Source: Botryllus schlosseri (taxonomy: Eukaryota). Taken from it: a DNA stretch of 64,000 nt. Location: contig CM119373.1 in NCBI GenBank assembly GCA_051294905.1, positions 560,001 through 624,000 of the forward strand, written 5' to 3'. Both the position numbers and the translations under genes were made by a program. Shown piece after piece: positions 37,701-64,000 of the stretch. Numbering within the stretch: the first letter of the stretch is position 1; every line of letters starts with the position of its first letter. Under the pieces are notes generated by a model. It did not search any database. It was not told the DNA's origin and was given only the letters and a program-made list of their open reading frames with translations.

Positions 37701-37803
37701 TAATTAGATAAGGTAATTTTTACCCGTATAGTAAAATGGAGCTCTATATCACCTGGCTAGAATCCTTGTATAGATTGTGTAATTAAATAATTGTGGTGCT
37801 AAA

Positions 37804-39575: not shown

Positions 39576-40067
39576 ATGGATTACATAGAGATCACTAACC
39601 AAATGGTTGGAGAATATGCGCATGAGTTAACTAGAATATATAATGAATTGGATGCCCTGCAAATGGAAAAAGACAACTGTCGTGAACAGATTTTCAAAAA
39701 TACGGCTACGATAATAAAGAGAGCGCTGAAAAACAGACAGCGTCTAAGTTGTCTGGCAATTGCTAAAGATAATAAAAAGGACTTGATGGATGACATCAGA
39801 TATATTCTGTTGGAAATTGAGGGTATGAAGGGGCAGGAACGAGTGATGATATACGAACTCCTGCGTGGATACATATCGTACCATACTGGGTTCGTGGTGC
39901 CAAAAAGTTCGTACAGAACGCGATCAAAAATTATGGAGATTTGGAAAACTAACGAACAAATAAACTGGACTTATGACCCAGAATTTGTGTGGGAAAAAGA
40001 GGAAAGAAGAAAAACGATTTTCTTGGTGATTCCACCGGAGGAAGACAAAGAAAATCAGGGATGTTAA
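39576..40067 (+). CDS. Intronless orphan ORF (~163 aa from ATG), paralog of 37804-38460
   Basis: MDYIEITNQMVGEY...RVMIYELLRG...; a decayed partial duplicate of its 5' end is at ~39389-39457. Confidence 0.55.
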   Translation: MDYIEITNQMVGEYAHELTRIYNELDALQMEKDNCREQIFKNTATIIKRALKNRQRLSCLAIAKDNKKDLMDDIRYILLEIEGMKGQERVMIYELLRGYISYHTGFVVPKSSYRTRSKIMEIWKTNEQINWTYDPEFVWEKEERRKTIFLVIPPEEDKENQGC

Positions 40068-47393: not shown

Positions 47394-47411
47394 AAAAGAA
47401 AGGGGGGAAGG
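47394..47411 (+). promoter_or_regulatory. Candidate polypurine tract (plus-strand primer)
   Basis: AAAAGAAAGGGGGGAAGG, nearly the retroviral A-tract/G6 PPT pattern. Confidence 0.45.
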
Positions 47412-47994
47412 CTGGGATGGAGAGATATATTAAATTGTGTATATACGCGTATTGTATCATAGTATAATACCCACTAAGATAAAAATCCTAAAAAATAAAA
47501 ACCTATTGTGAAAAAAAAATATAAAATGAATTAATCTTGAAATATGTACATAAGATATAAAAACTTACAAAAGAGAAAACTAAAGATAAAGGTTATACGG
47601 AGCATAAAATCATCTTCAAAAAAAAAAAAAACAATAAAAGAATGCCTTTGTGGGGGGCAAGATGTTTCTTTTGCGTTTACTAGGTTGCTTCATTTTGAGC
47701 GCCGTCAGTGGCTGTTTTTTTATTCAGTCCGTGTTGCGCTCAACTGTAAGCTGCCGGAAACTGTTACCGCACGTGATACATGCAGCCGGTTGACCGCAAC
47801 AGCGCTAACATATGAGCTGTATAAAGCATGAACTCGACTTGCTCTGCGTGAAAAAAATACCATAGTAGTTGGACTGGACCTGGGCTTCGCACACTTAGAA
47901 AAATATCCAATCAAGCGAAAGTGGTCGATTTAAACTTTTCTATATGTGCATATTTAAGGTTTATTGCATCGATAACAAACGCTAAAATATTAGT

Positions 47995-48501
47995 ATGTGC
48001 CTGGGCTTGCGTTGCAAAGAACCCGAGACGGAGCACCTAATATCGAAACCTCAAAAAGAGGACTTTATCGATCACGGACTAAAGTCGTTGAAATTTCTCA
48101 TGACAACACAATCGTTAACAGATCATCTTTATGATATATTTAATGACGATTCCAGTCTACGATATCGCTATTGGGAAAGAAATAGCGGCTTCCAAACGTG
48201 CGACAGTGATTGGGCTGGTAAAGAACTCGATGAAAACGAGTGGGAAGATACTTACGCAGGGAGCCTTCATCCTGAAGGACCTCTTCAAATGGCGTTCGCA
48301 GATATCTGCATAAACTGGGTAAAAGCCTTGAAAATGGCGAACCCCGAGTGGGTAGAGATACTAAGTGATGAGAAGACTGAACGTAATCTCGTAAAATGGG
48401 TGATCTTCCCCGAAGTCCAGATTTATGCGTACGCGGAAACGCGTTCACTGTCGCTAGAGGAAGCTGACTGTCACTATATGGCACTGAAAGTATCGAAATA
48501 A
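47995..48501 (+). CDS. Orphan acidic 168-aa ORF, probable accessory gene of the retroelement
   Basis: ATG-initiated, intronless ORF in AT-rich DNA; stop overlaps AATAAA; lies 140 bp upstream of array 1. Confidence 0.5.
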   Translation: MCLGLRCKEPETEHLISKPQKEDFIDHGLKSLKFLMTTQSLTDHLYDIFNDDSSLRYRYWERNSGFQTCDSDWAGKELDENEWEDTYAGSLHPEGPLQMAFADICINWVKALKMANPEWVEILSDEKTERNLVKWVIFPEVQIYAYAETRSLSLEEADCHYMALKVSK

Positions 48502-48640
48502 AGCATTTCGATTCGATAAAATTTATCAAGTGCAGGAATTACGATAGTTAAAAGACCCCCGTATTTATGATAACGAAGATTGTTTGAAATCATAAGAATT
48601 GCGAAATTTTAAATATAAAAATAGGTTTAAAAAACTGGAT

Positions 48641-49088
48641 ATCCGTACCTTGATGTTAGATCCTGGATAAGACGGACAGATTTTCCAAAATGATAAGGAT
48701 AGTATCCACAATAGATGGATGGAGATCCGTACCTTGATGTTAGATCCTGGATAAGACGGACAAATTTTCCAAAACGATTAGGGCAAATATAACAGATGGA
48801 TAGATATCCGTACCTTGATGTTAGATCCTGGATAAGACGGACAGATTTTCCAAAAGTTTAGGGCTACTAATATAATGTACATCCGTACCTTGATGTTAGA
48901 TCCTGGATAAGACGGACAGATTTTCCAAAACGATTAGGGCTAATATAATTAATGTACATCCGTACCTTGATATTAGATCCTGGATAAGACGGACAGATTT
49001 TCCAAAATGTTAAGGACAATATCCACAATGGATATAGATCGGTACCTCGGTGGTAGACCCTGGTGAAAGACCGACAGATATTCCAAAA
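48641..49088. repeat. Array 1: six copies of a 50-bp hairpin-forming repeat separated by 25-34-bp variable linkers
   Basis: ATCCGTACCTTGATGTTAGATCCTGGATAAGACGGACAGATTTTCCAAAA at 48641, 48725, 48806, 48881 and 48958 (0-1 mismatch), plus a diverged copy at 49038-49088. Confidence 0.95.
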
Positions 49089-50824
49089 CGTTTAGGGCAC
49101 TACCATAGCGATTTACAACGTGACTACGTTGTGAATTGCTATGGAACTACATAAGTTGAATAAAAATGAATATTATAACCGGAAATAATAGGCCTATAAC
49201 ATTAGGAATACCTCAGGCCAGTACTGCTAATATAAAGACCTTAGAAAAGTAACCCATGGTTGAATTTGTCCACACATTCGTTTTTCGAAACTGATGTGCC
49301 GATGATTGAGTATGACATTAGAATAAGACCCGCCTTGTATGCACATTCGTTTCACGAAATGGATGTGTCTGACAAGTGCACTTATGGCACCATGATCAGT
49401 ACGTGCATGCAAATTATTGTATTTTGGCAACGTTACGATAACAAATGACGCAGTATTCTGATATGTGTGTATTTAATGTCCTCCCTGTGCGCATTGAGTG
49501 TATCTACAACTTATATGACAAGAAGAGCGTCTCAAAAACATGCCAATGATTTAATGACCTGCTCTCAATAAGACCATAAGACTGAATGAAGTGATGAAAT
49601 GGCATGAGAGTATCGATATGAACTGGACATTCTGTTGGCATTAATGAACGGCTTGGCGGTACCAACTCTAAAATTACTATTCGACAGTCCCGCAAAACTG
49701 CTCCCCTCGATAGAATCTAGGGCTTAATGAAGTCAAATGAACGAGATGAGAAGAAATCCGGCACCATGAATCACTGCTCAGCAAGGACCAGCGAACCAAA
49801 GGTTGGAACGTGCCAAACAATGCCCGCAAGAAGTCGCGTTGAAGACAGCGGAGAAAAGAGGCGATCAAGACGGCTGCAAAATCAAGAAGAGATACGCAGA
49901 AGGATCGTTTCATCAGCAAGGGAGTTGAAGAAATCGGGTTCGAAATAGATGCACAAGACAAAGTACCCAAGCGTACAGTTGCCAAATACGTCCTTTACAT
50001 ACGATGATGGAGGTCGGAGAGGGTGCGTTTGGCGAACAACGACATGAATCTATCTGCGGCATGATGACGAGACGCGTGAGTCATAACAGGACATTGATAT
50101 TTTCACGTGATGGTTACTTTGATGTATTATTGTATAGTGACGCCATTTTGTTCAAGCGCGGCCTTTACTGTATCTTTGATCAATACCATCAGGTTGCTTT
50201 AAAATGGCGCTAACATTTTATGTCGTAGATATGTGTATGGGTTAGTGAACATTTAATATGTGAATAATTGGTTGTTACTACAGTAATATGATAGCGAATA
50301 CTATGCCTGTAGGCTTTACTTAGGCGTTATACACCGACCACGCCCTATGTTAGTGTCGGGACCCTTCACCCTAGCGGGATAGAAGCTTAGGATTAGAAAT
50401 GGTTAGGGATTTCTTCAGAAAACCCGTAAAAGGGACCCTGGGTATCTAACAGTGTTCGAATAAGCAACACCTTTGTTAAGGGTAGTATCATCAAGTGCAC
50501 TTTAATTGGCATATGGCCATGTTAATCGGGTCAACGATACAAAGTCCTTAATGTTGGAACCTCCCGGAGTTACGCGTTATAACTAGCTACGCACCCTTAG
50601 ACTAAGCTAGGAACCTCTACCTTATTGGAGCATGTGTAGAGTTAAAGATTCGTGGTAAATCAGATCTATTATTTGTGAGACACGGTACATACGAATGAAT
50701 AAAAAGCTTATATACACCGATACAAAGGAACCCAGAGATATAACAGATAGTGATTAAAACATTGGATCGTGCATGACTATTGTGATTGAATGGTGTGTCA
50801 TGTAGCGATATGTCATGAATGAAC

Positions 50825-51053
50825 TTTATGGCAGGAAAGGCCGACACATTCATTAGATGTGTAAACTAACCTCGGAGCTGCTTTACGGCAGGACAGGCCG
50901 TCACATGCATTATATGTGTAAACAAACCTATGAGCTATTTTACGGCAGGAAAGGCCGTCACATTATTTATATGTGTTAACAAACCCTGAAAGATACCACT
51001 TCGGCAGGAAAGGCCGTCGCATAGTTTATATGCGAAAACAAACCTTGGAGTAT
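50825..51053. repeat. Array 2: four ~57-60-bp units, each with two adjacent hairpins
   Basis: Consensus tttACGGCaggaaagGCCGT-CACAT(n7)ATGTG-taaacaaacc; units start at about 50825, 50882, 50939 and 50999. Confidence 0.9.
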
Positions 51054-51180
51054 TTAAAATACATTTAATCGTGCATGAATATGAATAGGTTTAAGCTTTA
51101 TCTTGTGTTATAATTGATGGATATTTTATATGCCAATTTAACCGAGTTTTGCTTAGATACCTCATTCTGTCTGCATGATA

Positions 51181-51262
51181 ATGATTGGAGTATTTGGTTG
51201 TATTAAAGGCTTAATTACACGTTATATAAGACTAGTTTAGAACTCTGGACCTAAGGGTCATT
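51181..51262 (+). promoter_or_regulatory. Candidate LTR core promoter (inverted CCAAT, TATA, Inr-like)
   Basis: ATTGG at ~51184, TATATAA at 51223-51229 and TCATT at 51258-51262, about 200 bp upstream of the PBS. Confidence 0.45.
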
Positions 51263-51438
51263 GTCTGATACTGAAAGATACCACTACTGCAACTACTGCT
51301 GCTTCAATCAACACCCACGGACGTCGTCTGGACAATACAGCGCAATAGAAGGTCAACTCCTCACCGCGAAATAATCCGAACCAAGTGTGGACGACTCGCA
51401 TAACAATCGTTATCGGAGCTGCACTATAAAGACATTAT

Positions 51439-51456
51439 TGGAGCCATCGGCGAGAT
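51439..51456 (+). promoter_or_regulatory. Primer-binding site, tRNA-Thr-like
   Basis: TGG-A-GCCATCG-GCGAG-AT has the layout of the reverse complement of CCA, a U discriminator, a 7-nt acceptor strand, a 5-nt T-stem and the T-loop end. The GCGAGAT part matches the T-arm of vertebrate tRNA-Thr(TGT) as I recall it. It lies just upstream of ORF0/gag. Confidence 0.65.
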
Positions 51457-51485
51457 TATTCCGGTGAAAAAACGGTGACCTATTA

Positions 51486-51821
51486 ATGTGCGCGAAGACG
51501 ACCCTCGTGAGAATCGTGCTCGGAGTGACGGTAATCACTTCTGTTATATCTCTGCTAATAACGTTGGCGTCGGTCTACGTACACCTCGTGCCAGTATTCT
51601 TTCCCACGACAAACCCTGAAGGTCTCTCTAACGACGTCACTACAACGGCCGAAGCACTTGCTGTCCCACGTAACGGATTTGCTGTGGCAATCGCCAACGG
51701 AACCGAACCAGTTATCTTCGGAAGGTATTCCGTACCTACAACGCAAGGGCGAGTGATCGAAAACAACACAACCACGTCCGTGCGTAATCTGTTTCGAAAC
51801 GGTACTTCCCATAACCAATAA
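51486..51821 (+). CDS. ORF0: 111-aa predicted type II membrane glycoprotein
   Basis: N-terminal hydrophobic stretch IVLGVTVITSVISLLITLASVYV, then a Thr-rich tail with NGT, NNT, NTT and NGT sequons. Confidence 0.65.
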   Translation: MCAKTTLVRIVLGVTVITSVISLLITLASVYVHLVPVFFPTTNPEGLSNDVTTTAEALAVPRNGFAVAIANGTEPVIFGRYSVPTTQGRVIENNTTTSVRNLFRNGTSHNQ

Positions 51822-51874
51822 AAGGTACGGGACTAAGATTCAGACAATCAACCGTTACATAAAATTTGCGAAAA

Positions 51875-54739
51875 ATGCTAAAATTATTCAAAAAAAGGAA
51901 TAAGTCGTCGAAGGCGGCAGGCGAGCTCGAGCAGGGCATCAAGCTACTGAAAGCAACACAAAAACGCCACGAAGACGTCAGACAACAAGAAAGACAGATG
52001 GCAAAAGACGTGGCTGAACAAACGAAGGTACTAAAAGAAGTCAAATCAACACTGCCCGAGACAATGAAGGGGCTGGAAAAGGCCAAGAAAGAAGTCAGGC
52101 GAGCTCAAGCCGACCTCAAAGCAGTATGCGACGCGACTTCGAAGGTTAGCGGGAAAGTCTCCACTGAAGTCCTCAGTGAGATTCTGAAATCGGAATTTGA
52201 ACTGGGCAAAGCCCATGCCCAAGTGGTTGGAGATAAACCACCACCACCTTCTTCCCTGTCCGTAATGGCTACAACACCTCCCCCGGCGTATGATCCACCC
52301 GTTGGGAAATCGTCCAGGGCAACAGCGCCACTACCCACGTTTACAGTCCAAAAGGGCCTGGATTGCCATACCGTAACTACAGTCTACCCTACGTTGCCCG
52401 GTTCCAAGCCGAGGTCGCTATCAGATTCTCATCCAAAAACGACTCCATGTTTTCCGGTTTGGAATGGAACACGCCCCGAAAGACGAAGGGGGAACCCAGT
52501 CGATACACCCAGTCTATTTCAGCTGAGTAGAACCGGAACAGACACTGGACCAGATTCAGACGAGGACTATGCGCACGCTCGAGAACGGCTCGGAGCATGG
52601 CTCGACGATCAACGAGCAGCCGAAGGAACCCGGACCAGGACACAAGGTGCGGCCAGCACTCCAACAAGGCGCGTTACCTTTCAGGAAGGGAGAACGAACT
52701 ACCGACAAGGCGAAAGCGAAGAGCCCGAAGATTCGGGGGAAGATACTGACGCCCAATTGGACAGACTAGGCAGACAAATAGCGGAGGCACGGGAGGCCAT
52801 TCGGGAAACCACGCGGACGCTTCAGCGGGACTCTGGTCGGCCCAACCCAAGCGAACCCGCAGAGGATATGTCGGACATTGCTGAATACCTCAGATTACCT
52901 CGATACGCATCTACCCCAAGAGAAAGCGAAGGTAGATCGAGACTTCCGCGAGAACAACCGCCAAATGATGCCGTGAACCCGGTGTTGACTACGCCCGAAA
53001 GGTTCCAGTCGGAAAAGGAGATGCTGCAGCTAATGATGGACCCTGGGGATATGCCACTTCTAAAGTGGATGGCTAATACGATGAGACGTATACGACACGG
53101 TGAGGGCGGCACTGATACTGATATCATCCTGGCTAATGCCATGCAGAAGAAGTTGAGAAGTGCGGGTCGCCTCAAACAAGCTAATCAGCTAGGGAATTTC
53201 TTCAACACCAACTCGGGAAATGCAAAATGGGTCTCGGTCATGAAATCATTGTCGCTATCCAACCCGCAAGGCTTGGTAAACAATGAAAAGGTCATCAACG
53301 ATTTCCGAAGGAACTATCAGTGGGAAGACGAACCTCTTCCGCTGTTGAATAGCGCCCTAAAACAACTAGAGATAGATATGGAAGCTGAAATCAAAGAAAA
53401 TCCGGATGGGCTGCGACTCTTCCGCAACCTAAGGCAACGATTACCAGAAGCACTTAGGCTGCTGATGCGGGGATGGGATAGCAGGTCCTGGCAAGAGGTG
53501 GCGGAGGATTTACAGCTGTACTGGAATTCTGAGTTTTTGGATGAACAAGAGGTACGTCCCACCGCTCGAGAGACCAGAAAAACGCGTGAAACAATGTCAC
53601 CCCTACCACCTGTGCACATATATAATGTTCAGCCTACAGGACCCATGATGCACAGTTACCCTACTCACGGGGGTGGAAATGGACGAATAAACACCCCTTC
53701 CCCACCGACTACACCGTCACTTCCAATGGTGCAACCACCCTCACCCCAACAACCTCCGCACATGATCGGGGGGACACCACCCAGACCGTCGGGGAATATG
53801 TCGCCACAGCAGCCCGTCGGCGTCGGGCAAGCGTCGCAGCCACGACGTGGCCCTCCTCGCGGCGCAAAGACCAACCGTTTTCCTACCAATGTAATGAGTG
53901 GAAATAGGTTTGGCAGACAGGGCCCGGCTCCCAGGGCCAAATCTTCCCGAACACAAAATGGGCGCAACGCATCGAATGGACCCAACGTTCCACCAACACG
54001 GAACTCCAGATCTCCTCAAACAAGTCAGGGGCCAAGTACTTCGAACCGGAGACCTCGGATGGTGAATACGCAGGACTCTGGAATTGGCGGGGACAGCCAG
54101 GAAATCACGCCGGCTAGCAGTCAGGAAGCCCTCCGCATCGCGGAGAGCCAAGGTGAGAGGTATAATTTTCTTGGGAACCCCAACATTTTCGCCCCTCTAG
54201 GCTTGTATCTGAACCCCCCTCAGGGGCAGTCCTTATCCGTATGTTATTATTGTAAGGCCCCGGGACACCAATCCCGTAATTGCGTGGCAAAATTCGTGCT
54301 TTGGCTAAATGAGGAGGTGATTGCCAAGGATGATACTTTAGGTTGGGTAGTTCGCAAACGAATACGACCGGTACCTCCGCGCGTAAAGGAGTCCACAAAA
54401 CGCAACTGGGAGCCTTTCCTTGCAAGGAATAACATATTGACGGTCCCGGATCTCGACCGGTACCTTGCCACCCAAGGTTCTCCCTCTCTGACACAGAGAA
54501 CTGCCTTGTGCGAGGCCTATTATGACTCTAGGCCAAAAAACAGAGATAGAACCCACTGGCATGATAGGGACCAATGGGGTCCTCAGGGACCGGCTGTACA
54601 ACCGAACCAGGGCAATAGCCGAGTGGCCTGGACGGAACCGCTATATCGTCGTCCTCCACGTCGCTATGACGCCTCGCACTGGACGGATGAGGAACTTGAA
54701 CAAGGCTTGAGACTCTCAAAAAACGACTGGGGGTGCTGA
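51875..54739 (+). CDS. gag: Gag-like polyprotein (~954 aa from ATG)
   Basis: Basic N-terminus, coiled coil, PPxY late-domain-like PPPAY, helical capsid-like middle, Pro/Arg-rich linker and CCHC knuckle CYYCKAPGHQSRNC. Directly precedes pol. Confidence 0.85.
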   Translation: MLKLFKKRNKSSKAAGELEQGIKLLKATQKRHEDVRQQERQMAKDVAEQTKVLKEVKSTLPETMKGLEKAKKEVRRAQADLKAVCDATSKVSGKVSTEVLSEILKSEFELGKAHAQVVGDKPPPPSSLSVMATTPPPAYDPPVGKSSRATAPLPTFTVQKGLDCHTVTTVYPTLPGSKPRSLSDSHPKTTPCFPVWNGTRPERRRGNPVDTPSLFQLSRTGTDTGPDSDEDYAHARERLGAWLDDQRAAEGTRTRTQGAASTPTRRVTFQEGRTNYRQGESEEPEDSGEDTDAQLDRLGRQIAEAREAIRETTRTLQRDSGRPNPSEPAEDMSDIAEYLRLPRYASTPRESEGRSRLPREQPPNDAVNPVLTTPERFQSEKEMLQLMMDPGDMPLLKWMANTMRRIRHGEGGTDTDIILANAMQKKLRSAGRLKQANQLGNFFNTNSGNAKWVSVMKSLSLSNPQGLVNNEKVINDFRRNYQWEDEPLPLLNSALKQLEIDMEAEIKENPDGLRLFRNLRQRLPEALRLLMRGWDSRSWQEVAEDLQLYWNSEFLDEQEVRPTARETRKTRETMSPLPPVHIYNVQPTGPMMHSYPTHGGGNGRINTPSPPTTPSLPMVQPPSPQQPPHMIGGTPPRPSGNMSPQQPVGVGQASQPRRGPPRGAKTNRFPTNVMSGNRFGRQGPAPRAKSSRTQNGRNASNGPNVPPTRNSRSPQTSQGPSTSNRRPRMVNTQDSGIGGDSQEITPASSQEALRIAESQGERYNFLGNPNIFAPLGLYLNPPQGQSLSVCYYCKAPGHQSRNCVAKFVLWLNEEVIAKDDTLGWVVRKRIRPVPPRVKESTKRNWEPFLARNNILTVPDLDRYLATQGSPSLTQRTALCEAYYDSRPKNRDRTHWHDRDQWGPQGPAVQPNQGNSRVAWTEPLYRRPPRRYDASHWTDEELEQGLRLSKNDWGC

Positions 54740-54761
54740 TTGATCCGGTAAATCAGCTCCC
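54718..54761 (+). promoter_or_regulatory. -1 ribosomal frameshift signal (gag-pol)
   Basis: A_AAA_AAC at 54718-54724 in the gag frame, a 6-nt spacer, then stem GGGuGCUGAUU/AAUCAGCuCCC (54731-54761). Pol is in the -1 frame and open from 54711. Confidence 0.85.
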
Positions 54762-57700
54762 AGACAATTTGTTACCCCAACACGCAAAAACTGTACATAA
54801 TGCTTCTTTACCCCTATTTACATTTCTTGATACACCGGATAACCCACTACAGCCAGACTTTACGGAATTATTCGGCGGTCGGCTCTTGTATTTGGTTGAC
54901 ACCATAACGGGAACTAAATTCTTGGCCGACACGGGAAGCATCCCCAATTTAATAATGAAAAATGATGTAAAAACCATGTATCCCAAGAGCTGGGAGGAAC
55001 GGCAACCCTTAGATATGAAATCACGCGGTATAGGGGGCTCTTCCCACGTTGACTCCTTGGTAATTATTGAATTCGATGGACTACCGGTTCCATTTGCGAC
55101 CGGGAAAGGAGTCCCTCTCAATATTATTGGGTTGAAATGGATTGATCAGGTACAACAATTACCGAACATAGCGACTGAATTTAAAACTCCGTCTAATGCA
55201 AACGAAGAGTTGTCTTTAGTAACACTACATGACGAGATCTCGTGCGATCAACGGGATGGAACCAGAGTCGGAAACAGTCCTTGCAACGCTGCTACCGACG
55301 ATGGGTTGATGGAAGCTGCGAAACAGATAAGCGTCGAGTCGGCGCGCCGGTCATCATCGCCGGCCGTCGCCGCTGGCGCAAGTGTCGAGATGGCAATCGC
55401 CACTGGCGCGGACGACGGGTTGGTAAATACCACTAACGTCGAAAAAAACCTACGGGAAACCCCTAGTGTTGGGACAGGTAGCTCTGCTGGCACTAGGCAA
55501 GAGAGTGTCGGGTCAGGTCGCCCTGCTGGCACTAACCAAAGACGTGTCGAGACAGGAATCCCTGCTGGCACCATTAATGAAGACGTCGAGCGCGGAATCC
55601 CGGCTGACGTAAATAAGGACCTGCACGAGAAAACTGGTCCTGAAAGCTCACGTGGATGCACTTGTTCGAATAACTGTAACAATTCGGCCCAAAGATGCAT
55701 GACGACAGCCACAGTTATGAGTAATTTCCCAAAAGGTTCAAACGAAGCAGCTATTGTCGGTCAACCGGACGCATGTCCAGGCGCATCCGACAAGGAGTCT
55801 GGGGATTTTAAGATGCGCGTCTCCCCAGAAACAGGGCCCCCGGCGGAGAATGAGTCCGTCGGCGTGACGGTAGGTGTGGGCACGCACCGAGCTCAGAGGT
55901 CAGATTGGATAGGTAGGGAATCCCCGCTGACAACGAAGAACCTCGCCCTCTCTCCACCAACACCAAAACCCCGTTTATCACGTGATTCGCATCGGCCGAT
56001 AACTGGTCCTCTTACCACGTACACATTACAACAAGGCACCAGTCCCAGCGTTAAGACGGAACTCGAAAGTCTCTGTGCACAATCGGTAGCACTGGCAAAG
56101 CTTCCATACAAACCTCCTGATCTAACGACCCCGGAAAATACCATCATTGCCGACGAAGTTTGGAAAGCCGTCTATGAGCCTTTCGCAGCTGAACTAGAGG
56201 ACCTGCGTGGCCACTTACGAGCCCCTCAAGCCATGAAGTATAAGTGTGACATAGAACTCAGGGATCCCTCGACTAAGCCTTTTGTTTCTGGACCTTATAA
56301 TCTGAAAGGGGAGGGCCAGGCGAAGGCGTTAAAAGAAGCAGTGGACAACTTCTTGGACCTGGGAATAATTGAGCAAGGATTTGCCGAATGGAAACTGGCC
56401 ATCTTTGTCGTCCCACAAAAAATGAATGAAAGACAGAAGCAGGAGGACGGGTGGAAGCAATCATGGAGAGTCGTACAGAATCTCCAGCCCCTGAACGCTG
56501 CTATAAAGTCAATCGAAGTCCCTCCACCCTTAGTACCAGATGTAAAACAACTCGCCCAGGGAAGAGAAGTGCTCTCCCTGCTGGATTTGAAGAAAGCCTA
56601 TTTCCACATGGATATCACGGAAAGATCCAAGCAATATGTGGGGATAGCAATCAAAGGAATGCACGTAAGATGGCGCAAGATGGTGATGGGATTGAAGACC
56701 GCGGTTGCTCTTTGGAGCGCTAACATGCAAGAATGCGTGGTGAAGCCCATCACGGAAAGGTACCGTCAACACATGAAGCAAAATGGCCGATCGGATGAGG
56801 AGAATGCGACGCCTATGGAGGCCTACATAGACGACATTTTCCTTAGCACAAAAACGGTAGAGGACCATTTGCTTCTCCTACGACTGGTATTTGAACAACT
56901 TGCAAAAATGAAATTGACGCTCAGCATCAATAAATGCTTTATTGGAAAACGGAGAGTAAATCTGCTGGGAGCGACCCTGACGGGGAAAGAGATCGAGGTG
57001 CAGCCCGAGAGAATAAGGGCGCTGCGAGAGCTCTCACCACCCCGAAATATATATGAATTACGGGGATGGATCGGCGCTCTACGCTACATCTCGGAGCACA
57101 TCCCAGAGTTGAGCTTGAAGTTGGCAAAATTTGATGCACTAACGGGAAAAGTCCCAGCGACTCGAGGTAAAATGACACCGGTACTTTGGACCGAAGAATT
57201 AATGCAGGACTACAAGACAGCTCAAGCCGCACTCGACAGTACCAAGGTACTGTATCATCTGGATTCAGGACTTCCCATTTTCGTGGAAACTGATGCATCA
57301 GATGTAGGGTTTGGCTCCGTAATTTTTCAAACGGATGTGGGGGAAAAACCCCCTTTCAAGGAGGTGTATCCGGTCGCTTACTACAGTCAAAAGTGGGTAA
57401 CCCCGACGGCTAAAGCCTATGACCCATGCACCAAAGAGCTTAAAGCCCTGAAGGATTCAGTGGAGAAATGGCAGTCGATGCTGCGCGCCTTACCCTTCAC
57501 TATAATTACTGACAACATGGGAGTTTTTGGACTCCTGAAAAGAATGACAGATGAGGCAAAAAACCCGAGCCCAAAGCCATTGATTCAAAGGTGGCTAAAT
57601 CATCTCTCCGGATTCCAGATAAAAGAGGTAATCCATTTGAGCACGTTCCAAGTGTTTACTTCAGATGGATTGTCCCGATCCTATTGGATGGAAATGGCTG

Positions 57701-58266
57701 CTAGAGATGATGACCCTCATGTCTGGGCCACCCTCCCGGGACACAAAGAATCTCAACAAGAGAAAATACAGCGAACCCTGATGTTCCACTGTCGGCACGA
57801 GTATTGCGCAAACTCTGTCGATGGATACCACCCCTGGGAAGAAGTTCGCGGAATAATCAAAGACAAGCTGCGACAAGACCTCGGGATAACTGAAATCGAG
57901 GATATCATGGCCAATTGCGACAGGGCAGTGATGTCCAGTGAAGGCCTGGCTGCAGCGCACGGGCACACCAAAGGGATGCCACCTCCGTACGAAGAGTACC
58001 TGGGCGATGACATGCTGTATCACATAACGACGGATGAAGGTGCCCGTCAAATCATTGATACCCAACTACACAGAATGAACCGACGGTTCATCCATTTGAG
58101 TAAGATTAACACAACGAAAGCACGTGGGCGTAGAACGGTTCTGAGAATGAGGGCGAGCGACCTCAGAAGGATAGGTCTACGACTCTTACAGTCGCATAAT
58201 CACGAGGTAATACTGTGCGAAGGGCCAATACCGTCAGAGTATATACTGATGGAAAACCTGGCCTAG
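54733..58266 (+). CDS. pol: Pol: aspartic protease, long low-complexity linker, reverse transcriptase, RNase H and a C-terminal Tpt1/KptA-like domain; no integrase
   Basis: FLADTGS (PR); LLDLKKAYFH, MVMGLK and AYIDD (Ty3/Gypsy-like RT); VETDASDVGFG, KELKAL, IITDN and DGLSR (RNase H); CRH...HGHT...LYHIT...MNRRFIHLS...IPSEYI (Tpt1-like). Confidence 0.92.
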   Translation: MLIDPVNQLPDNLLPQHAKTVHNASLPLFTFLDTPDNPLQPDFTELFGGRLLYLVDTITGTKFLADTGSIPNLIMKNDVKTMYPKSWEERQPLDMKSRGIGGSSHVDSLVIIEFDGLPVPFATGKGVPLNIIGLKWIDQVQQLPNIATEFKTPSNANEELSLVTLHDEISCDQRDGTRVGNSPCNAATDDGLMEAAKQISVESARRSSSPAVAAGASVEMAIATGADDGLVNTTNVEKNLRETPSVGTGSSAGTRQESVGSGRPAGTNQRRVETGIPAGTINEDVERGIPADVNKDLHEKTGPESSRGCTCSNNCNNSAQRCMTTATVMSNFPKGSNEAAIVGQPDACPGASDKESGDFKMRVSPETGPPAENESVGVTVGVGTHRAQRSDWIGRESPLTTKNLALSPPTPKPRLSRDSHRPITGPLTTYTLQQGTSPSVKTELESLCAQSVALAKLPYKPPDLTTPENTIIADEVWKAVYEPFAAELEDLRGHLRAPQAMKYKCDIELRDPSTKPFVSGPYNLKGEGQAKALKEAVDNFLDLGIIEQGFAEWKLAIFVVPQKMNERQKQEDGWKQSWRVVQNLQPLNAAIKSIEVPPPLVPDVKQLAQGREVLSLLDLKKAYFHMDITERSKQYVGIAIKGMHVRWRKMVMGLKTAVALWSANMQECVVKPITERYRQHMKQNGRSDEENATPMEAYIDDIFLSTKTVEDHLLLLRLVFEQLAKMKLTLSINKCFIGKRRVNLLGATLTGKEIEVQPERIRALRELSPPRNIYELRGWIGALRYISEHIPELSLKLAKFDALTGKVPATRGKMTPVLWTEELMQDYKTAQAALDSTKVLYHLDSGLPIFVETDASDVGFGSVIFQTDVGEKPPFKEVYPVAYYSQKWVTPTAKAYDPCTKELKALKDSVEKWQSMLRALPFTIITDNMGVFGLLKRMTDEAKNPSPKPLIQRWLNHLSGFQIKEVIHLSTFQVFTSDGLSRSYWMEMAARDDDPHVWATLPGHKESQQEKIQRTLMFHCRHEYCANSVDGYHPWEEVRGIIKDKLRQDLGITEIEDIMANCDRAVMSSEGLAAAHGHTKGMPPPYEEYLGDDMLYHITTDEGARQIIDTQLHRMNRRFIHLSKINTTKARGRRTVLRMRASDLRRIGLRLLQSHNHEVILCEGPIPSEYILMENLA

Positions 58267-58353
58267 GATGCGGGGTGACGCAGCCGTCGAGATTTAACTG
58301 CTGGGAAGTGGTCGATCGTTAAAGGAACTTGTACTTTTTTATTTACTTTTCAG

Positions 58354-59315
58354 ACTCCTTCGTCGAGGATTACAATGTGCTGCGATTGGTGGAAATGGGG
58401 GCCTTACCCCATACACGCGATTGCATCCCTTTTTTAAGAAGCCGGGGTCTACTGAGAAAACAAATGATATGCAGAAAATGCTCAAGATGGATGAAGGAAG
58501 AACGGACTACCGAGAGAATTTCGGACGGATGGAGATGGAGGTGCTCTCCTTGTAAAACCACTGCTACTATCCGCAAGTACTCGTTTTTTTCAAAAAGCAA
58601 ACTTGGGTTACCCCAGCTGCTAGTATTAAGTTATTTTTGGGCCCAAGACTCTCTACAAATTCAAATGGCCCATGAGGCCGAGATCAGCGCACGTACGACG
58701 GTAGAATGGTCTGGACAACTGCGCAAGATATGCTCTGCTTACATACAAAGACGTAAACGGAAATTAGGCGGGGTTGGCCGAACTGTAATCCTGGACGAAA
58801 CTCACTTGGCCAAACGGAAGCGGGCAGCTGGTAGCGGCCAACAAGCAGTGAAGGCTGTCTGGGCTTTCGGTGGCCTGGACCGAGGTACCGGTGACATGTT
58901 TGTGGAGATCACATCTGACCGAACAGCGGACGTTCTGAAAAGACTTATAATTAAGAATGTAGCCAGAGGTTCGACCATTCTGACAGATGGCTATCCATCG
59001 TATAAGGGCATTGAAAGTTGGGGGCAGGGCTATAAACATGGATCAGTTGACCACGCCACCACGTTCAAATCTGCCCAAGGCGTTCATACCAATGATTTGG
59101 AGGCATGTTGGGGCTCGCTGAAATATCATTTACACAGGTCGAGGGGTTTAGCACGCCATTTACTAGCCGATTACGTGGGGGAGTGGCTTTGGAAGAGAAG
59201 ATACCCCCGTAAAAAAAGGTTTGGGGCTCTGTTGAGAACGATATCGCTTGACCCACGGTATTGCAATGACGACCCTAGTGATCAGATCCCTGACGCACAA
59301 GGTGATTCTCATTAA
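58354..59315 (+). CDS. IS1595/ISXO2-family (Merlin-type) DDE transposase, probably expressed from a spliced RNA (first in-frame ATG 58395)
   Basis: Zn ribbon CRKC...WRCSPC, RKYSFFSKSKL, catalytic ILDET / ILTDGYPSY / HTNDLEACW, H..VDH and Y..EWLWK. Preceded by the acceptor tttttttatttacttttcag ending at 58353. Confidence 0.9.
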
Positions 59316-59431
59316 AGCCCAGAGAAGCCTTTAGCAACAAAGAAAGGAAGTTAACAACAGACCGGACAATGTATGTTTCTATTTTTTTGCAGACAATAAT
59401 TAAATCATATTCAATATAAGATAATAAGCTT

Positions 59432-59572
59432 ATGCATTGGGGACCGACGCCTATACCGTCTCAATGGACTACGCTATTTATATTCTGCCTGTCGTTATTG
59501 GTTTCAGTTGCACACCTGATTGCTTGTTGTCTGAGGCGGCGGGCTTCGTGCCGAGATCCGGAGATACTGTAG
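59432..59572 (+). CDS. 46-aa single-pass membrane peptide overlapping the env start (not in ORF track)
   Basis: First ATG after the acceptor at 59392: MHWGPTPIPSQWTTLFIFCLSLLVSVAHLIACCLRRRASCRDPEIL*. Confidence 0.4.
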   Translation: MHWGPTPIPSQWTTLFIFCLSLLVSVAHLIACCLRRRASCRDPEIL

Positions 59573-62046
59573 CAAGCAGGGCCCGAACCTTTACTCAGGG
59601 TACACTGGGTGAATTCAACGGCTCACTACCTGACGACTGGGTTCGGCTAAATGATACGCAATGGGAAACCTACGACCTGATGAGTGCTTTCAATAAGACA
59701 GGGAAACGTCATGTGTACAGGCGACCAACACTGTTTCATAGTGAATCTTTTGGTTACGTGGTGGCCGAACGGGTGTCATTGCAGCAAATGGCGTTCCCAC
59801 AAGGGCGATATTGGTCGAATGTACGGGACTTTGAACGGACCTGCTTATGCCAACGAAAACTAGGCCAAATTTCGCCAAACCTAACCTTTACCGTTCTTGA
59901 CCAGGAAACTGTGTTCGTACGCCCAATAGGACATGGGGTCAGGATACGGTGGTTTTGGGACGAGACCTGGGAAACGTCTAGGCAGAAATGGAGGGCTGGG
60001 GCTGAAGTGGACGAGTGGTCCCATGTGAACGATACCTTAATGGCAATGACCAAATTCAAGTTGATCATGTTACGAGCCTTCGCGGGGTTCTCAGCGGTGA
60101 GATCGACTTGTAGGACAGAGCGCATGACAAAAGATACATGGAACTGGACTCAGGTTGATCGATGGAATAAATATAACGCCAGTAGCTCGAGCATTGCGCA
60201 TTGTTGGCCGAGTAACGTGCTTTGGGCCGGAACATATTCAATAACCTACGACTGGAAGACTCGCACGGCAGACAAACGCCTGGTGTCGTCAACGCCAGAT
60301 TCACGCGGCACCTGTGTTTTTTGTGATATCACAGGGATAATTTCTGCTTTAGAACCGAGCCAAGCAGACATAATAATACAAGAAATAGATACCATTCGTG
60401 CGGAATCCGCATGGGAACGTAAGTGGCATCCTATGCAAAACTGCCGAGCTACGTCAGGACTGATCACCCAGGAAAACTATGAACACCTTTGGCAGGTCGT
60501 CCATCACTCACCAACCTTATCCGGTAAGGGCCTACGCAACATCGTGCATCCTCCATCATGTAATTTTTGGCCGACGCAGAACAAGAGTAAGTGGGGGGAC
60601 TTGCCCACCTCGAATTTTCCTCGAAGGATTAGATGGATACAGGCGTCCTTATCGAACTGGAAGGGTCAAGATGACCAAGGGCTTGGTTGGGATAACTTGT
60701 TCGACGGACCTGCCGAAAAACCAGCCGCACCCAACGACATACTGCCTATTTGGCGAAAGCACCCCTCTTTGGTTGCGGATGATCCTAGGTGTCAGGAACG
60801 GATAAGTGGTAGCGACTGTCAAGATCCGGTCGGGGGCCCTCAGTTGAAGGCGGCCTTTTGGGATCAGGTGCACTTCGACCCTGAGCGTAACCGACCCCGT
60901 TTTCCGGGAGGTCCTATAGAAATAAAAGGAGACATCGCACATAATAATAGGAGGATTGGGGGGAAACGTAGACGTAAACGATTCCTCTTCGGCCTACTGG
61001 CACTAATCTTTGCCGTCGTGTCAGTTGTCGCTGTTGTCGCAACTGTATCTTCCCAACTGCATAAAGAAACTGAGGACCTGAGTCATCAAATCAACGACAG
61101 AATGATCCAGGCTACGGAGAGATCAACCGAACTAGGGAAAAAGATAAACGAACTCTCCCAAATCCAAACAGCGCAACAACAAAAGCTGGACCGATTGGTT
61201 GAAAACATGGAGGTAAGAGCATCACTGACGGACAGACGATTGGTGTGGATGCAGAAAATGGTGGAGAAAAACCGACAAATGATATTGCGGCAGGCTACCA
61301 TCACCCTCGCTCAGTTTCAAAGTTTCACAGAGGTGAGCGACGCTGAACTTGCCGTCGACCGCTTGGTCATGAAAGAATTAGCTAATTTGACCGGAAAGTC
61401 CATATTCGATTCGAGTAAGGTCTATCTTACACAGATTCGGAAAGGGACATTGCAGGTGCGGGAGCATGCTCAGCAGTTATCCGCCTATAAAGATACGTAT
61501 GTAAATGAGACAAACGACATCAGTAGTAAACTCCGAGCCAACAGGCTTCGTCTGAACCAGGCTCAAGAAGAAGTGGATCTCAGTATACAGGTATGGAAGG
61601 AAGACCTGAACCGGAGTGTGTTCGTAAATATCTCCGACTGGCGCTACGAGAATGTGTCAGTAGCCCCCTTCGAGTTTGCTGGGGGGGAAGAATTTATGAA
61701 GAACTTTGGCAAAACGATAGAAGAGATGGCGAACGGTGCCGGAAGTCTGATAGAATCGGTCGGAAACGGTGCCGGTAACCTCCTACAAAAGGGACTTGGA
61801 GCAATCGGAGGTCTGTTTGGAAGTGGACTGAGTGGCATTTTTTCGGGCCTCGGATCCATCCTCCTCCCCTTGGGACTTGTACTGGGTGCGGTGATTATCT
61901 TATTCTGTTGTGTCAGGTATCACAGCCTATGCTGTCCCAAGTTAAAATCTAGCGTACAAAGGCGGAACACTAACGCCCAACTTGCAATGTATATAACGTC
62001 GACACCATCTTACACCGTAAAGCCCAGGCCCATAGTGCGACGGTAA
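59464..62046 (+). CDS. env: Envelope fusion glycoprotein (class-I-like)
   Basis: Signal-like N-terminus MDYAIYILPVVIGFSC, many N-glycosylation sequons, furin site KRRRKR (60964-60981), fusion peptide FLFGLLALIFAVVSVVAVV, heptad repeats, Gly-rich pre-TM region, TM ILLPLGLVLGAVIILF and a Cys-Cys tail. Confidence 0.88.
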   Translation: MDYAIYILPVVIGFSCTPDCLLSEAAGFVPRSGDTVASRARTFTQGTLGEFNGSLPDDWVRLNDTQWETYDLMSAFNKTGKRHVYRRPTLFHSESFGYVVAERVSLQQMAFPQGRYWSNVRDFERTCLCQRKLGQISPNLTFTVLDQETVFVRPIGHGVRIRWFWDETWETSRQKWRAGAEVDEWSHVNDTLMAMTKFKLIMLRAFAGFSAVRSTCRTERMTKDTWNWTQVDRWNKYNASSSSIAHCWPSNVLWAGTYSITYDWKTRTADKRLVSSTPDSRGTCVFCDITGIISALEPSQADIIIQEIDTIRAESAWERKWHPMQNCRATSGLITQENYEHLWQVVHHSPTLSGKGLRNIVHPPSCNFWPTQNKSKWGDLPTSNFPRRIRWIQASLSNWKGQDDQGLGWDNLFDGPAEKPAAPNDILPIWRKHPSLVADDPRCQERISGSDCQDPVGGPQLKAAFWDQVHFDPERNRPRFPGGPIEIKGDIAHNNRRIGGKRRRKRFLFGLLALIFAVVSVVAVVATVSSQLHKETEDLSHQINDRMIQATERSTELGKKINELSQIQTAQQQKLDRLVENMEVRASLTDRRLVWMQKMVEKNRQMILRQATITLAQFQSFTEVSDAELAVDRLVMKELANLTGKSIFDSSKVYLTQIRKGTLQVREHAQQLSAYKDTYVNETNDISSKLRANRLRLNQAQEEVDLSIQVWKEDLNRSVFVNISDWRYENVSVAPFEFAGGEEFMKNFGKTIEEMANGAGSLIESVGNGAGNLLQKGLGAIGGLFGSGLSGIFSGLGSILLPLGLVLGAVIILFCCVRYHSLCCPKLKSSVQRRNTNAQLAMYITSTPSYTVKPRPIVRR

Positions 62047-62128
62047 CCAATCTCCGACGAAGCTCTCTTAACCCTCATGCTTAACTAAACACAACTATAT
62101 GAATTACAGATTTTCACGTTAAACTAAT

Positions 62129-64000
62129 ATGCCAATAATTAACTACCTGTACAAATGGAAAGGACTACAAAGATTGCTGCTGTTAATCCCGTGGGCTTGT
62201 TTTGTGAAAACCCAAACTGGCGAAAACCTACTACCCTTATCTGCCATGACCGTGGGGTCCGTCGACGACTTTAATTTTACGGGATGGATACTTTTCGACG
62301 TCCCACCAAAGCCGCAAAGAGTTCCGTTGTCACGGCTTTTTATATTAGGAGGGGACTGGCCTCGAAGGGACATTCGACGTCACTATCAGATACAGGTTGA
62401 CGACTCGGCGTTTGGTCCGTTGAAAGCCGCACCGCAAAGTTTATACAAATTACTGACACCCATATCATCCATAGGATCCCAAAACGCCAGGTATTGGAAT
62501 GAAACCTGGGCGTATGAACGGGAGTGTGTGTGCAGAAGGACTGAGTCGTGGATATCGCCGGATCTGAACCCTGCGGACTACTATACTCAAAAAATAAAGT
62601 ACCGACGTGACGGCAGACTGGGAGTGATACATCTCTGGAGGTACGTAGAAACCCGAGTCTTGCATTCTCTACCCCTCGAGACATTACAACGACTAACCGT
62701 ATATAAGACAATGATCATAAATTTATTGGAACAATATGAAACAGTGGAAGCAAATTGTCGCTATCAGTTCGGGCGTCATATAGGATGGGATATCGGACAG
62801 AATAGATTCAGCCATTGTGTTGCTCACAAAAAACGTCGAAGTAGAGTGATGTGTATAGAGTGCTACTTCATGGGGGAGCAACCGGTTGAGAATTTCTTGC
62901 CCCTAGATTTTGTAATACAGGAAGTCGATCCCGGTATTATTGGGAACCCGCCGGATAAGCGGAGAACCTTTTCTAGCAATCAATGGCCCGACAGAGCTCC
63001 TCTGCCGAAGATAAGCGAGAATCTGGTATGGCTACAAGCAAGGAACGAGACATATTCGGAACATTGGCATGTGATGTTCGACGGACGAAAAACCGATACG
63101 GCATTCCTACGCACGATGGCGAAACCCCAACCTTCAGGCATGGCAATGTATGACTCTTACCCAGTTCTTTTGCATAATAGATCGCGGTGCGGACTAAAGG
63201 AAAATAGACAAGTTTGTTCAACGGCTGTTGGAGATCTCAAAACAGCCTTACTATTCAATAGAGTATTATTCGACCCTTTCGAGGGGCAGGCCGTGTTTGC
63301 GGACCCTCGGCAAGGTGCAATGCAAATTGCTGCCCCTGAAAACCGAACGCGGACGGAAATACTTTTACCAACCCTGGGTAACCAAACTTCCTGCTTGATT
63401 TCAAAAGGGTGGGAAACGTTCATACTATCCCCGTCTCGAGAGACACCCGATGGAAATGGACGGGGGGGTATCAAAACCTGGCTATCCCGTCTTGGGGTAC
63501 AATACGCAGAAGAGACAAAGAAACACTTGTCACAACTGAAGGTTCGAATAAGGGGAGGCGTAGAAACGCAGCGAGAAAGACCCGTCTCGCGGGGACAACT
63601 TGAGGAGTTATCCGTGAGGTATAACCTTACCCTACGACCGACATTAGTAGAACAAGTAAAATTATTAAATACGATACTTCTGGATTATATGGCCACACAA
63701 AAGCTAATTCAGGCAGAAGTGGGGGACGAAAAGTTATTTCAGTCTCGATGGATCTATCGGGGGACGTTTTGTGAAGGTTCCCTGGTCTATACGCCATATG
63801 CCTATAGGAATAATGCGGGGGAGAGATCCACCGCTCGAACGGTGATATTAACCGCAACTGATGACCGTGGAAACCATCACGCAAGGATCACATGGACCCC
63901 CGAAGTTCCGCAAACTACTTCGATGATGGTGGGCAGTACGAACACAGAAGCTTTGGGAAATGGGCGTGGCGTAACACCAAGTGAAAAAAGGAAACCAACA
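62129..64000 (+). CDS. Second env-SU-like glycoprotein, at least 624 aa, 3'-partial (absent from ORF track because no stop in window)
   Basis: Open from ATG 62129 to the window end. Signal-like LQRLLLLIPWACFV. RYWNETWAYERECVCRR aligns with env RYWSNVRDFERTCLCQR, and YPVLLHNRSRCGLKENRQVCSTAVGDLKTALLFNRVLFDP aligns with env HPSLVADDPRCQERISGSDCQDPVGGPQLKAAFWDQVHFDP. Confidence 0.85.
   Translation, partial: MPIINYLYKWKGLQRLLLLIPWACFVKTQTGENLLPLSAMTVGSVDDFNFTGWILFDVPPKPQRVPLSRLFILGGDWPRRDIRRHYQIQVDDSAFGPLKAAPQSLYKLLTPISSIGSQNARYWNETWAYERECVCRRTESWISPDLNPADYYTQKIKYRRDGRLGVIHLWRYVETRVLHSLPLETLQRLTVYKTMIINLLEQYETVEANCRYQFGRHIGWDIGQNRFSHCVAHKKRRSRVMCIECYFMGEQPVENFLPLDFVIQEVDPGIIGNPPDKRRTFSSNQWPDRAPLPKISENLVWLQARNETYSEHWHVMFDGRKTDTAFLRTMAKPQPSGMAMYDSYPVLLHNRSRCGLKENRQVCSTAVGDLKTALLFNRVLFDPFEGQAVFADPRQGAMQIAAPENRTRTEILLPTLGNQTSCLISKGWETFILSPSRETPDGNGRGGIKTWLSRLGVQYAEETKKHLSQLKVRIRGGVETQRERPVSRGQLEELSVRYNLTLRPTLVEQVKLLNTILLDYMATQKLIQAEVGDEKLFQSRWIYRGTFCEGSLVYTPYAYRNNAGERSTARTVILTATDDRGNHHARITWTPEVPQTTSMMVGSTNTEALGNGRGVTPSEKRKPT

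Follow-up and report, generated by a model that had tools for sequence, protein, structure and literature searches.

Retroelements enter chromosomes by means of rve integrases, tyrosine recombinases or target-primed reverse transcription, whereas transposons with terminal inverted repeats (TIRs) do so by means of DDE transposases. DIRS elements carry a tyrosine recombinase in the place of the rve integrase. Pararetroviruses have genomes under 10 kb and are not known to possess a transposase, insertions marked by TIRs and target-site duplications (TSDs), or a class I-like pair of envelope (env) proteins. Typical Merlin transposons measure a few kb and leave TSDs of 8-9 bp. In the portions of the sources available to us, Merlin transposases are defined by the DDE_Tnp_IS1595 domain (PMC4202319) and Merlin is paired with IS1016 (PMC5718144; 10.1101/2021.09.26.461848), Terminons are described as giant retroelements with many open reading frames (ORFs) (PMC5718144), and Teratorn of medaka appears as a TIR-bounded unit of 180 kb that joins a herpesvirus gene set to piggyBac and has multiplied in the genome (PMC10175614). 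Here we describe a mobile element found in a stretch of 64,000 nucleotides (the window, C3:560001-624000) of a chromosome-scale contig in a 495-Mb eukaryotic assembly. We consider it probable that the element is a hybrid, in which a Ty3/Gypsy-like gag-pol that has neither an integrase nor long terminal repeats (LTRs), together with two env genes, is permanently coupled to one or two IS1595/Merlin transposases, and that the retrovirus-like genes first noticed at this locus are the right-hand third of a 38.2-kb element.

The ends of the element were set by comparing its copies. Five close copies, whose transposases are 90-97% identical to that of the window, are colinear with it far outside the region originally flagged. 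Downstream, homology stops at window position 65757, which is 1757 bases beyond the window, in all five; they share the end ...GTGCACTAGTTCC, after which unrelated flanks begin, and the 3' end is thus sharp in five copies. Upstream, homology runs through 48-29 kb and reaches about 27550, and with a short query laid across this boundary 39 other places in the genome start to match at 27520-27551, most of them at 27523-27526. The unit so delimited runs from 27526 to 65757 and measures 38,232 bp. Its termini are inverted with respect to each other: 24 of 32 positions match, in an alignment anchored at ends that the copy comparison had fixed independently (binomial P 4e-9 to 2e-7), and the same GGnnCnnnTGCA starts are seen in other copies. 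No 5' partner came up in an exact search with the 13-mer of the 3' terminus; it emerged only when the copy-defined termini were aligned. Copy-defined ends, inverted termini and identical 8-mers flanking them together place the element at 27526-65757, and not at 51439 to somewhere past 64000, as the initial annotation had it.

The TSDs of other elements were checked by a pattern search for the predicted duplications, and a duplication is present in four of the five elements tested: the window copy (38,232 bp, ACTTGTTG on both sides, 8/8), a second copy on chromosome 3 (38,383 bp, GAAAATTT on both sides, 8/8), the C16 copy (41,707 bp, GGATTTTT against GTATTTTT, 7/8) and an element on C2 with the same termini (9,961 bp, AAATTTTG on both sides, 8/8). 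No LTRs emerged from two self-comparisons, one within 44001-84000 and one setting 27001-64000 against the 3' end: no direct repeat joins the ends of the element or flanks the gag-env block. The insertion signature, TIRs with an 8-bp TSD, is of the Merlin type and unlike that of retroviral integrases. The C2 element (C2:14911032-14920992) has no reverse transcriptase (RT) or transposase match listed inside it, yet its 8-bp TSD is perfect. A second unit of ~10 kb, at about C2:2246312-2256284, has the same 5' and 3' termini and likewise no RT or transposase match listed inside; both units are candidate non-autonomous derivatives.

All long ORFs from 51.4 kb to the end of the window lie uninterrupted on the plus strand (Table 1). 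The first ATG of the pol frame, at 54955, is downstream of the protease DTG, and therefore Pol must come as a Gag-Pol fusion; a stem-loop of 13 bp (~54727-54762) stands 3' of the slippery heptamer and is weakly better than shuffled sequences (z -1.6). Pfam recognizes RVT_1, RT_RNaseH_2 and RT_RNaseH in pol. After the SDGLSRS that closes RNase H, a Tpt1/KptA-like domain follows directly. Integrase domains (rve PF00665 / PF17921) are absent in Pfam scans from pol and from every ORF of at least 75-80 amino acids (aa) between 26000 and 74000, hence from the element and from 8.2 kb downstream of it, env2 having been checked in full from a sister copy; nor did the ORFs scanned contain a tyrosine recombinase, another recombinase family or a GIY-YIG domain. 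The best solved-structure match of the protease-RT-RNase H part is 8r0s (E 6.4e-16), whose title, 'Enzymatic polyprotein', we take to be the UniProt name of the caulimovirus polymerase; Ty3 (4.6e-12) and then foamy virus come after it.

The ORF between pol and env1 contains DDE_Tnp_IS1595 (Pfam E 7.6e-13, 49.2 bits against a cut-off of 27), and the NCBIfam model for IS1595 family transposases gives E 6.8e-20, with 71.9 bits against a cut-off of 75. Its N-terminus forms a CxxC...CxxC zinc ribbon, the catalytic residues D134, D198 and E236 are invariant in eight transposase sequences, and no private inverted repeats bracket the gene. An exhaustive profile search returned 6,614 relatives at E <= 0.001, 111 of them at E <= 1e-30; the single named close relative found is an uncharacterised protein of Ciona intestinalis (37% identity), and a word-based search gave six matches, none of them named. 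Thus, the initial annotation was right in seeing a Pol of protease, RT and RNase H devoid of rve, with an ISXO2-type DDE gene between pol and env, and both observations hold when the sequence past 64000 is included in the domain scan. The intact one-strand array that it described is likewise borne out by ORFs and Pfam for ORF0-gag-(-1)-pol-transposase-env1-env2, and fails only at its head, for want of an LTR and of a constant primer-binding site (PBS). The PBS had been proposed at 51439; the 17-mer there occurs in three versions among six aligned copies, with invariant blocks on either side and no LTR upstream, and is rejected because the proposed site differs between copies. The window contains no tRNA gene. 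Among the six aligned copies a block reading CTATAAA, near 51424, does not vary.

What stands in the place of the integrase? The C-terminus of Pol matches RNA 2'-phosphotransferase (NCBIfam E 3.9e-10 over positions 5-180 of 183; Pfam E 4.3e-5) with scores below the curated cut-offs, and its sequence matches in the PDB are 7kw8 and 9ld3. An AF2 model built from a 5-sequence alignment reaches a pLDDT of 76.7, and all Foldseek matches listed for it with E <= 0.001 are Tpt1/KptA (probability 1.00, TM about 0.5), the titles of these structures including complexes with DNA and with 5'-phospho-ADP-ribosylated DNA. Tpt1 enzymes have the catalytic set Arg-His-Arg-Arg. In all five aligned sequences the motifs RH, GH(T/S), HxT and R..H are kept, but a residue other than Arg stands at the position that the alignment, uncertain there, pairs with the Arg before GHS. 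A word-based search with the Tpt1 part alone found no fused Tpt1-bearing protein. When Pol was compared with a large protein collection, the eight best homologues (41-53% identity), which come from ENA assemblies with contigs up to 2.5 Mb, had rve in none and PF01885 (Tpt1) in five, and among the remaining 36 matches (28% identity or less) rve was present in 28, these more distant homologues being Ty3/Gypsy polyproteins with rve. Given that the closest homologues have no rve and mostly carry Tpt1, polymerases of the integrase-less RT-Tpt1 type constitute a separate lineage that is not confined to this window, and its presence in other assemblies may point to great age and to a distribution over several species. 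One RT-Tpt1 homologue, P0008, continues at its C-terminus into an Exo_endo_phos (AP endonuclease-like) stretch, which may be a gene-model fusion with a neighbouring element.

Within this genome, a search with the RT part gave 93 matches, of which 66 long ones with at least 47% identity were kept (of the 27 left out, 13 were fragments and 14 belonged to an unrelated class with 26-28% identity), and 89 of 129 transposase matches were used, the other 40 being fragments and matches at 35% identity or less; as only the best candidates were scored, both counts are lower bounds. A transposase lies within 60 kb of the RT in 60 of the 66 cases, nearly always on the same strand. The six RT matches that have none nearby comprise one on a short contig, three at ~91-92% RT identity and two at 47-48%. 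The linkage thus extends well beyond the window, and the proposal made in the initial annotation, that a retroelement lineage had swapped its integration module, survives as an integrase-less RT lineage tied to a transposase and no longer as a compact 12.5-kb PBS-bearing retrovirus. No sister copy with a normal integrase in place of the transposase, no integrase in the 8.2 kb downstream of the element and no TIRs private to the transposase turned up.

The architectures form four families. In family A (the window and its close relatives, six copies) the transposase, 90-100% identical to the window copy, follows the RT by 2.1 kb in 6/6 close copies. In family B it lies about 22.8 kb upstream of the RT and is 69% identical; family C has two transposase paralogues (63% and 43%), 30-53 kb (mostly 35-38 kb) and about 13 kb upstream of the RT; and in family D, where RT is 59-62% and transposase 41-42% identical, the distance upstream is mostly 15-18 kb and 31-36 kb in two cases. 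The trio transposase-env1-env2 is kept in families B and C, with env1 56-70% identical, and there gag-pol is not adjacent to it, the two being 13-38 kb apart and in a different order. One family B copy has, upstream and in inverted orientation, a gag and a pol without the RT part. Two family C copies have the same 3' terminus within about 300 bp after pol, so that the same ends enclose differently ordered modules; 5'-subterminal similarity is found in L027. In family C all ORFs of at least 150 aa are on one strand across about 23 kb. The family C copy on chromosome 10 (L029:7163 to L030:9769) is a dense plus-strand ORF array, several members of which belong to no family, and includes an uninterrupted LRR gene, the second IS1595 transposase, an IAP (three BIR and a RING) and an E2 ubiquitin-conjugating enzyme. 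In family A, the C1 and C7 copies have LRR genes upstream as well.

Are these genes maintained? In five of the six family A copies gag, pol, transposase, env1 and env2 are all open. In the sixth (C7, L022:705-3853) a hAT-type transposon, with a 641-aa ORF bearing hAT dimerisation and zinc-finger domains, sits in the transposase gene, and env2 is split in two. Pairwise ratios of nonsynonymous to synonymous divergence (dN/dS) are 0.12-0.31 for gag, 0.10-0.23 for pol as a whole, 0.07-0.13 for the transposase, 0.10-0.23 for env1 and 0.42-0.62 for env2; within pol, RT and RNase H both stand at 0.07, the protease at 0.15 and Tpt1 at 0.22. Purifying selection acts on all genes and is strongest on the transposase. 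Given that synonymous divergence among the copies reaches 0.30, these low ratios indicate that most of the divergence arose in lineages that needed each gene. Gene relationships conflict, as the C1 copy groups with C12 in gag and with C16 in env1, which points to recombination.

Table 1. Features of the element, in window coordinates (positions above 64000 lie beyond the window).
Feature	Position	Strand	Remarks
5' TSD copy, ACTTGTTG	27518..27525	.	identical 8-mers directly outside both termini
Element body	27526..64000, on to 65757 (L011:1757)	+	colinear copies
5' TIR (GGTTCAGGTGCA...)	27526..27557	+	partner is the last 32 bases, 65726-65757
Accessory ORF, 225 aa	37783..38457	+	no Pfam family; 38% identical to 220-aa family C ORF (L030:79-738)
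Accessory ORF, 170 aa	39555..40064	+	weak paralogue of the 37783-38457 ORF; E 4e-4 to the L030:79-738 ORF
Insertion, about 478 bp	46784..47260	.	private to this copy, other copies without it
Accessory ORF, 171 aa	47986..48498	+	57% identical to family C L030:1958-2470
Spliced-leader 24-mer	51183..51206	+	about 280 nt upstream of ORF0; exact match to host leader
ORF0, 111 aa	51486-51821	+	one transmembrane-like segment, 3 N-glycosylation sequons
gag, 954 aa	51875-54739	+	CCHC knuckle at 54242-54283
pol	54700-58266	+	-1 frame relative to gag; 40-nt overlap
Slippery heptamer A_AAA_AAC	54718-54724	+	within gag/pol overlap
Protease DTG	54922-54939	+	in pol
RT YIDD	56824-56835	+	in pol
RNase H TDAS	57286-57303	+	in pol
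Tpt1/KptA-like domain	~57700-58263	+	C-terminal 170-190 aa of pol, where an integrase would sit
Polypyrimidine tract + CAG	58330..58353	+	3' splice-acceptor-like; upstream of transposase ATG
IS1595/Merlin-type DDE transposase, 306 aa	58395-59315	+	between pol and env1
env1, 860 aa	59464-62046	+	signal peptide, furin-like site, C-terminal transmembrane segment
env2	62129-65269	+	runs past window end; 1,047-1,049 aa in other copies
3' TSD copy, ACTTGTTG	65758-65765 (L011:1758-1765)		

Among the structural genes, the zf-CCHC of gag scores 20.4 bits, just below the Pfam cut-off of 20.8, and language-model features place the middle of gag nearest to Retrotrans_gag/Ty3_capsid clusters (0.92), which we take as a lead only. 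In env1 an RRKR furin-like site at aa 503 is directly followed by a hydrophobic peptide. A language-model look-up puts env1 nearest to class I viral fusion glycoproteins (0.90), again as a lead only; its AF2 model (pLDDT 32.6) is useless, and long predicted helices appear only there. The N-terminal domain of env2 is distantly like env1. It has a Ser/Thr/Pro-rich stalk and a C-terminal transmembrane anchor and neither an internal furin site nor a fusion peptide; env2 looks like an attachment protein. Putative acceptor-like polypyrimidine-AG sites similar to that upstream of the transposase precede env1 and env2 too, near 59390 and 62108. A 134-bp repeat pair lies in the 3' untranslated part of the element (L011:1432-1645).

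About 24 kb of the element lie upstream of gag. The 54 ORFs of at least 75 aa in 26000-51500 include no Pfam family with a credible score. Tandem repeats occur in this part at 48636-49105 and 50824-51055, with units of about 80 bp and about 57 bp. Four RNA-seq runs under the same species label, from two studies, were mapped on 44001-64000. Hundreds of reads consist of a 5' adapter, presumably the template-switch oligo, then the sequence of 51183-51206, then many different sequences. As the reads join adapter and 24-mer to so many continuations, the 24-mer is the host spliced leader; the host thus uses spliced-leader trans-splicing, and the leader is the 24-mer plus G. The 24-mer has 236 exact copies in the genome against 0 for a control, mostly dispersed, with a few pairs 0.4-4 kb apart, and many copies stand ~5 kb upstream of RT matches in families A-D. 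It is invariant in six aligned gag-upstream regions of families A and B and occurs in families whose RT is only about 60% identical; GT does not follow it in most copies. The embedded leader has either been re-acquired via trans-spliced, reverse-transcribed RNA or been kept as a leader mimic or captured leader gene.

The insertion private to the window copy has the peak RNA depth of the stretch mapped, and reads from it run on into the spliced leader in reverse complement; the insertion resembles a retrocopy, or a copy akin to a short interspersed element, of an abundant trans-spliced RNA on the minus strand. The C16 copy (L032:4980-9128) has an insertion of ~4.1 kb relative to the window that opens with a near-exact spliced leader in opposite orientation, which suggests that a trans-spliced mRNA was retrocopied into the element. 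Outside the element, a repeat family of ~3.4 kb (window 20001-23410; at least 10 copies, 87-90% identity) lies upstream and another of ~970 bp (25695-26670; at least 20 copies, ~91% identity) lies just upstream. A 236-aa pentraxin / laminin-G-like ORF on the minus strand (L011:5235-5942), 3.5 kb past the 3' end, is probably a host gene exon.

How would such an element multiply? In the hybrid that we regard as probable, the RT would copy the whole element, and the transposase would bind the terminal repeats of the double-stranded DNA form and carry out strand transfer in the integrase's stead. Gag-Pol produced by -1 frameshifting, env1 as the fusion protein and env2 as the attachment protein would give a particle-forming, RT-dependent stage, through which the element could increase in number and pass from cell to cell. 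Spliced or trans-spliced mRNAs may serve to express the downstream genes, and the Tpt1/KptA-like domain of Pol may act on phosphorylated nucleic-acid ends of the replication intermediate. The one-strand ORFs of family C with their uninterrupted IAP, E2 and LRR genes, together with the conserved leader upstream of gag, hint at an RNA stage. As for the event itself, either a retroelement swapped its integrase or a giant Merlin transposon took in retroviral genes. Going further, we advance only tentatively, and with more doubt than conviction, that the element represents a new class of enveloped reverse-transcribing virus-like element of 38-45 kb, the largest of its kind, which has given up LTRs and integrase, has a DNA form with inverted repeats at its ends that a Merlin/IS1595 DDE transposase inserts with 8-bp duplications, modifies phosphorylated ends by an NAD-dependent Tpt1/KptA enzyme, relies on the host spliced leader for expressing or masking its RNAs, and has cargo with anti-apoptosis and ubiquitin-pathway roles.

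Several points weigh against the hybrid and its RNA stage. To our knowledge, 38-45 kb is far larger than any reverse-transcribed genome, and we know of no way in which both TIRs could be rebuilt from a transcript that has neither LTRs nor terminal redundancy. RNA depth on the coding part is almost nil in the four runs, with a maximum of 2.8x on pol-transposase in one, and no RNA or cDNA intermediate was observed in these low-depth data. The TIR is imperfect (75% matched, GG...CC), and in the C12 copy the 5' junction, and hence the TSD, was not found by pattern search. Simple transposition of DNA, with the enzyme supplied in trans, would account for the ~10-kb element that has a perfect TSD and no RT or transposase match listed inside it, and the differing positions of gag-pol relative to transposase-env, together with the inverted family B copy, show that the modules are separable. 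A language-model lead is all that speaks for a capsid in gag, and another is all that speaks for a fusion fold in env1. At the position aligned with the Tpt1 Arg before GHS, all five sequences have Ala, Val, Asn or Lys, in a part where the alignment is uncertain.

Much of this agrees with the main rival, a pure giant Merlin-type DNA transposon that moves and replicates only as DNA. Its gag, pol and env would have been captured from an endogenous retrovirus and kept for another use, for example as particles carrying DNA or RNA between cells or as weapons against the host, and its RT would not copy the element. TIRs and an 8-bp TSD do enclose everything, a length of 38-45 kb with cargo genes would be in keeping with such a transposon, the transposase is the most constrained gene, the place of gag-pol relative to transposase-env varies among families, the ~10-kb element with its perfect TSD has no listed RT or transposase match, and there are neither LTRs nor a PBS nor a way to rebuild the ends from RNA. 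However, RT and RNase H are constrained like the transposase (dN/dS 0.07) and the frameshift apparatus is intact, which is hard to explain if they are idle passengers. Likewise at odds with a purely DNA-borne life are the tie between RT and transposase over deep divergence (RT 59-62%, transposase 41-42% identity), the existence of the integrase-less Pol lineage in other assemblies too, and listed ORFs that are all on one strand with uninterrupted cargo ORFs. We therefore judge this explanation unlikely, while giving it real weight.

It might also be asked whether an ordinary LTR element or endogenous retrovirus and an independent Merlin transposon became nested, one inserting into the other, or whether the transposase was separately inserted between pol and env. 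The genome is rich in nested repeats, as the hAT in one transposase and the private insertions in the window and chromosome-16 copies illustrate. Nevertheless, no LTRs surround the gag-env block and no TIRs the transposase, the same junctions recur in 6/6 close copies, the adjacency of transposase, env1 and env2 is kept at 56-70% identity and the RT-transposase linkage in 60 of 66 cases, and Pfam scans reveal no rve remnant; nesting or chance juxtaposition is thus disfavoured, and we think it very improbable. Weakest of all, and scarcely credible, is a pararetrovirus-like virus that would live as an episome of circular or linear DNA and integrate occasionally, whose pregenomic RNA is reverse-transcribed as in Caulimoviridae/Hepadnaviridae and which uses the transposase only to enter and leave the chromosome: Pol without integrase, the top structure match 8r0s and the permuted gene blocks among families are as it predicts, and an excised circle would supply the terminal redundancy that the linear copy lacks, but the families compared share both their 5' and their 3' termini, which makes the gene orders rearrangements and not a circle opened at different points, and at greater distance the pol homologues are rve-bearing Ty3/Gypsy proteins.

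The view taken at the outset, that no described family has this layout, agrees with our own survey: no description of an RT-plus-IS1595 or RT-Tpt1 element was found in the accessible parts of the open-access literature searched, outside which subscription journals and supplements lie, and among the 12 papers listed for the pairing of Tpt1/KptA with retroelements none deals with both. As far as its available text goes, a survey of env-carrying retrotransposons (PMC13524379) does not use the terms looked for on a transposase, terminal inverted repeats, a phosphotransferase, giant size or integrase loss, and in the text available of the Teratorn review (PMC10175614) neither 'Merlin' nor 'IS1595' occurs.

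How, then, does the element compare with known systems? With Merlin/IS1595 it shares the DDE_Tnp_IS1595 domain with an N-terminal zinc ribbon, TIRs, an 8-bp TSD and a shorter, maybe non-autonomous derivative; it differs in its 38-45 kb, with gag, protease-RT-RNase H-Tpt1, two env and host-like cargo, in the two divergent transposase paralogues of some families and in TIRs that are only 75% matched. The env-carrying Ty3/Gypsy elements (errantiviruses, Metaviridae) and retroviruses resemble it in gag (CCHC), -1 frameshift, protease-RT-RNase H and then env, in the RT and RNase H Pfam families with YIDD and TDAS, and in the furin site, hydrophobic peptide and transmembrane segment of env1. Unlike them, the element lacks LTRs, a conserved PBS, an rve integrase and an HHCC finger, and has TIRs, an 8-bp TSD, a Tpt1-like end of Pol and ~24 kb of extra sequence and cargo. 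The polymerase of the pararetroviruses (Caulimoviridae, Hepadnaviridae) likewise consists of protease, RT and RNase H without integrase. DIRS/Ngaro elements are alike in the replacement of the rve integrase, and Terminons, so far as the source available describes them, in giant size with many ORFs, whereas the present element shows neither a tyrosine recombinase nor a GIY-YIG domain in the ORFs scanned, has another RT type and other termini, and bears the integration signature of a DDE transposase. In contrast to the Tpt1/KptA RNA 2'-phosphotransferases, the domain here is fused to a retroelement polymerase.

An intact, selected retroviral gene set and a Merlin-type transposase in one TIR/TSD unit, and this in families that diverged deeply, would directly exemplify the exchange of an integration module between the two main classes of mobile DNA in eukaryotes. 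The element makes testable whether a transposase can stand in for an integrase, what limits the size of reverse-transcribed genomes and what role Tpt1/KptA plays in a polymerase; annotation pipelines based on LTRs and integrases will miss such elements. A comparable case is Teratorn, which, according to the parts of its description available, likewise holds virus genes inside a TIR-bounded unit moved by a cut-and-paste DDE transposase. In the present element the viral partner is reverse-transcribing and Ty3/Gypsy-like, the transposase is of the Merlin type and not piggyBac, and the size is 38-45 kb as against 180 kb; it would thus be the retroelement counterpart of the herpesvirus-piggyBac fusion.

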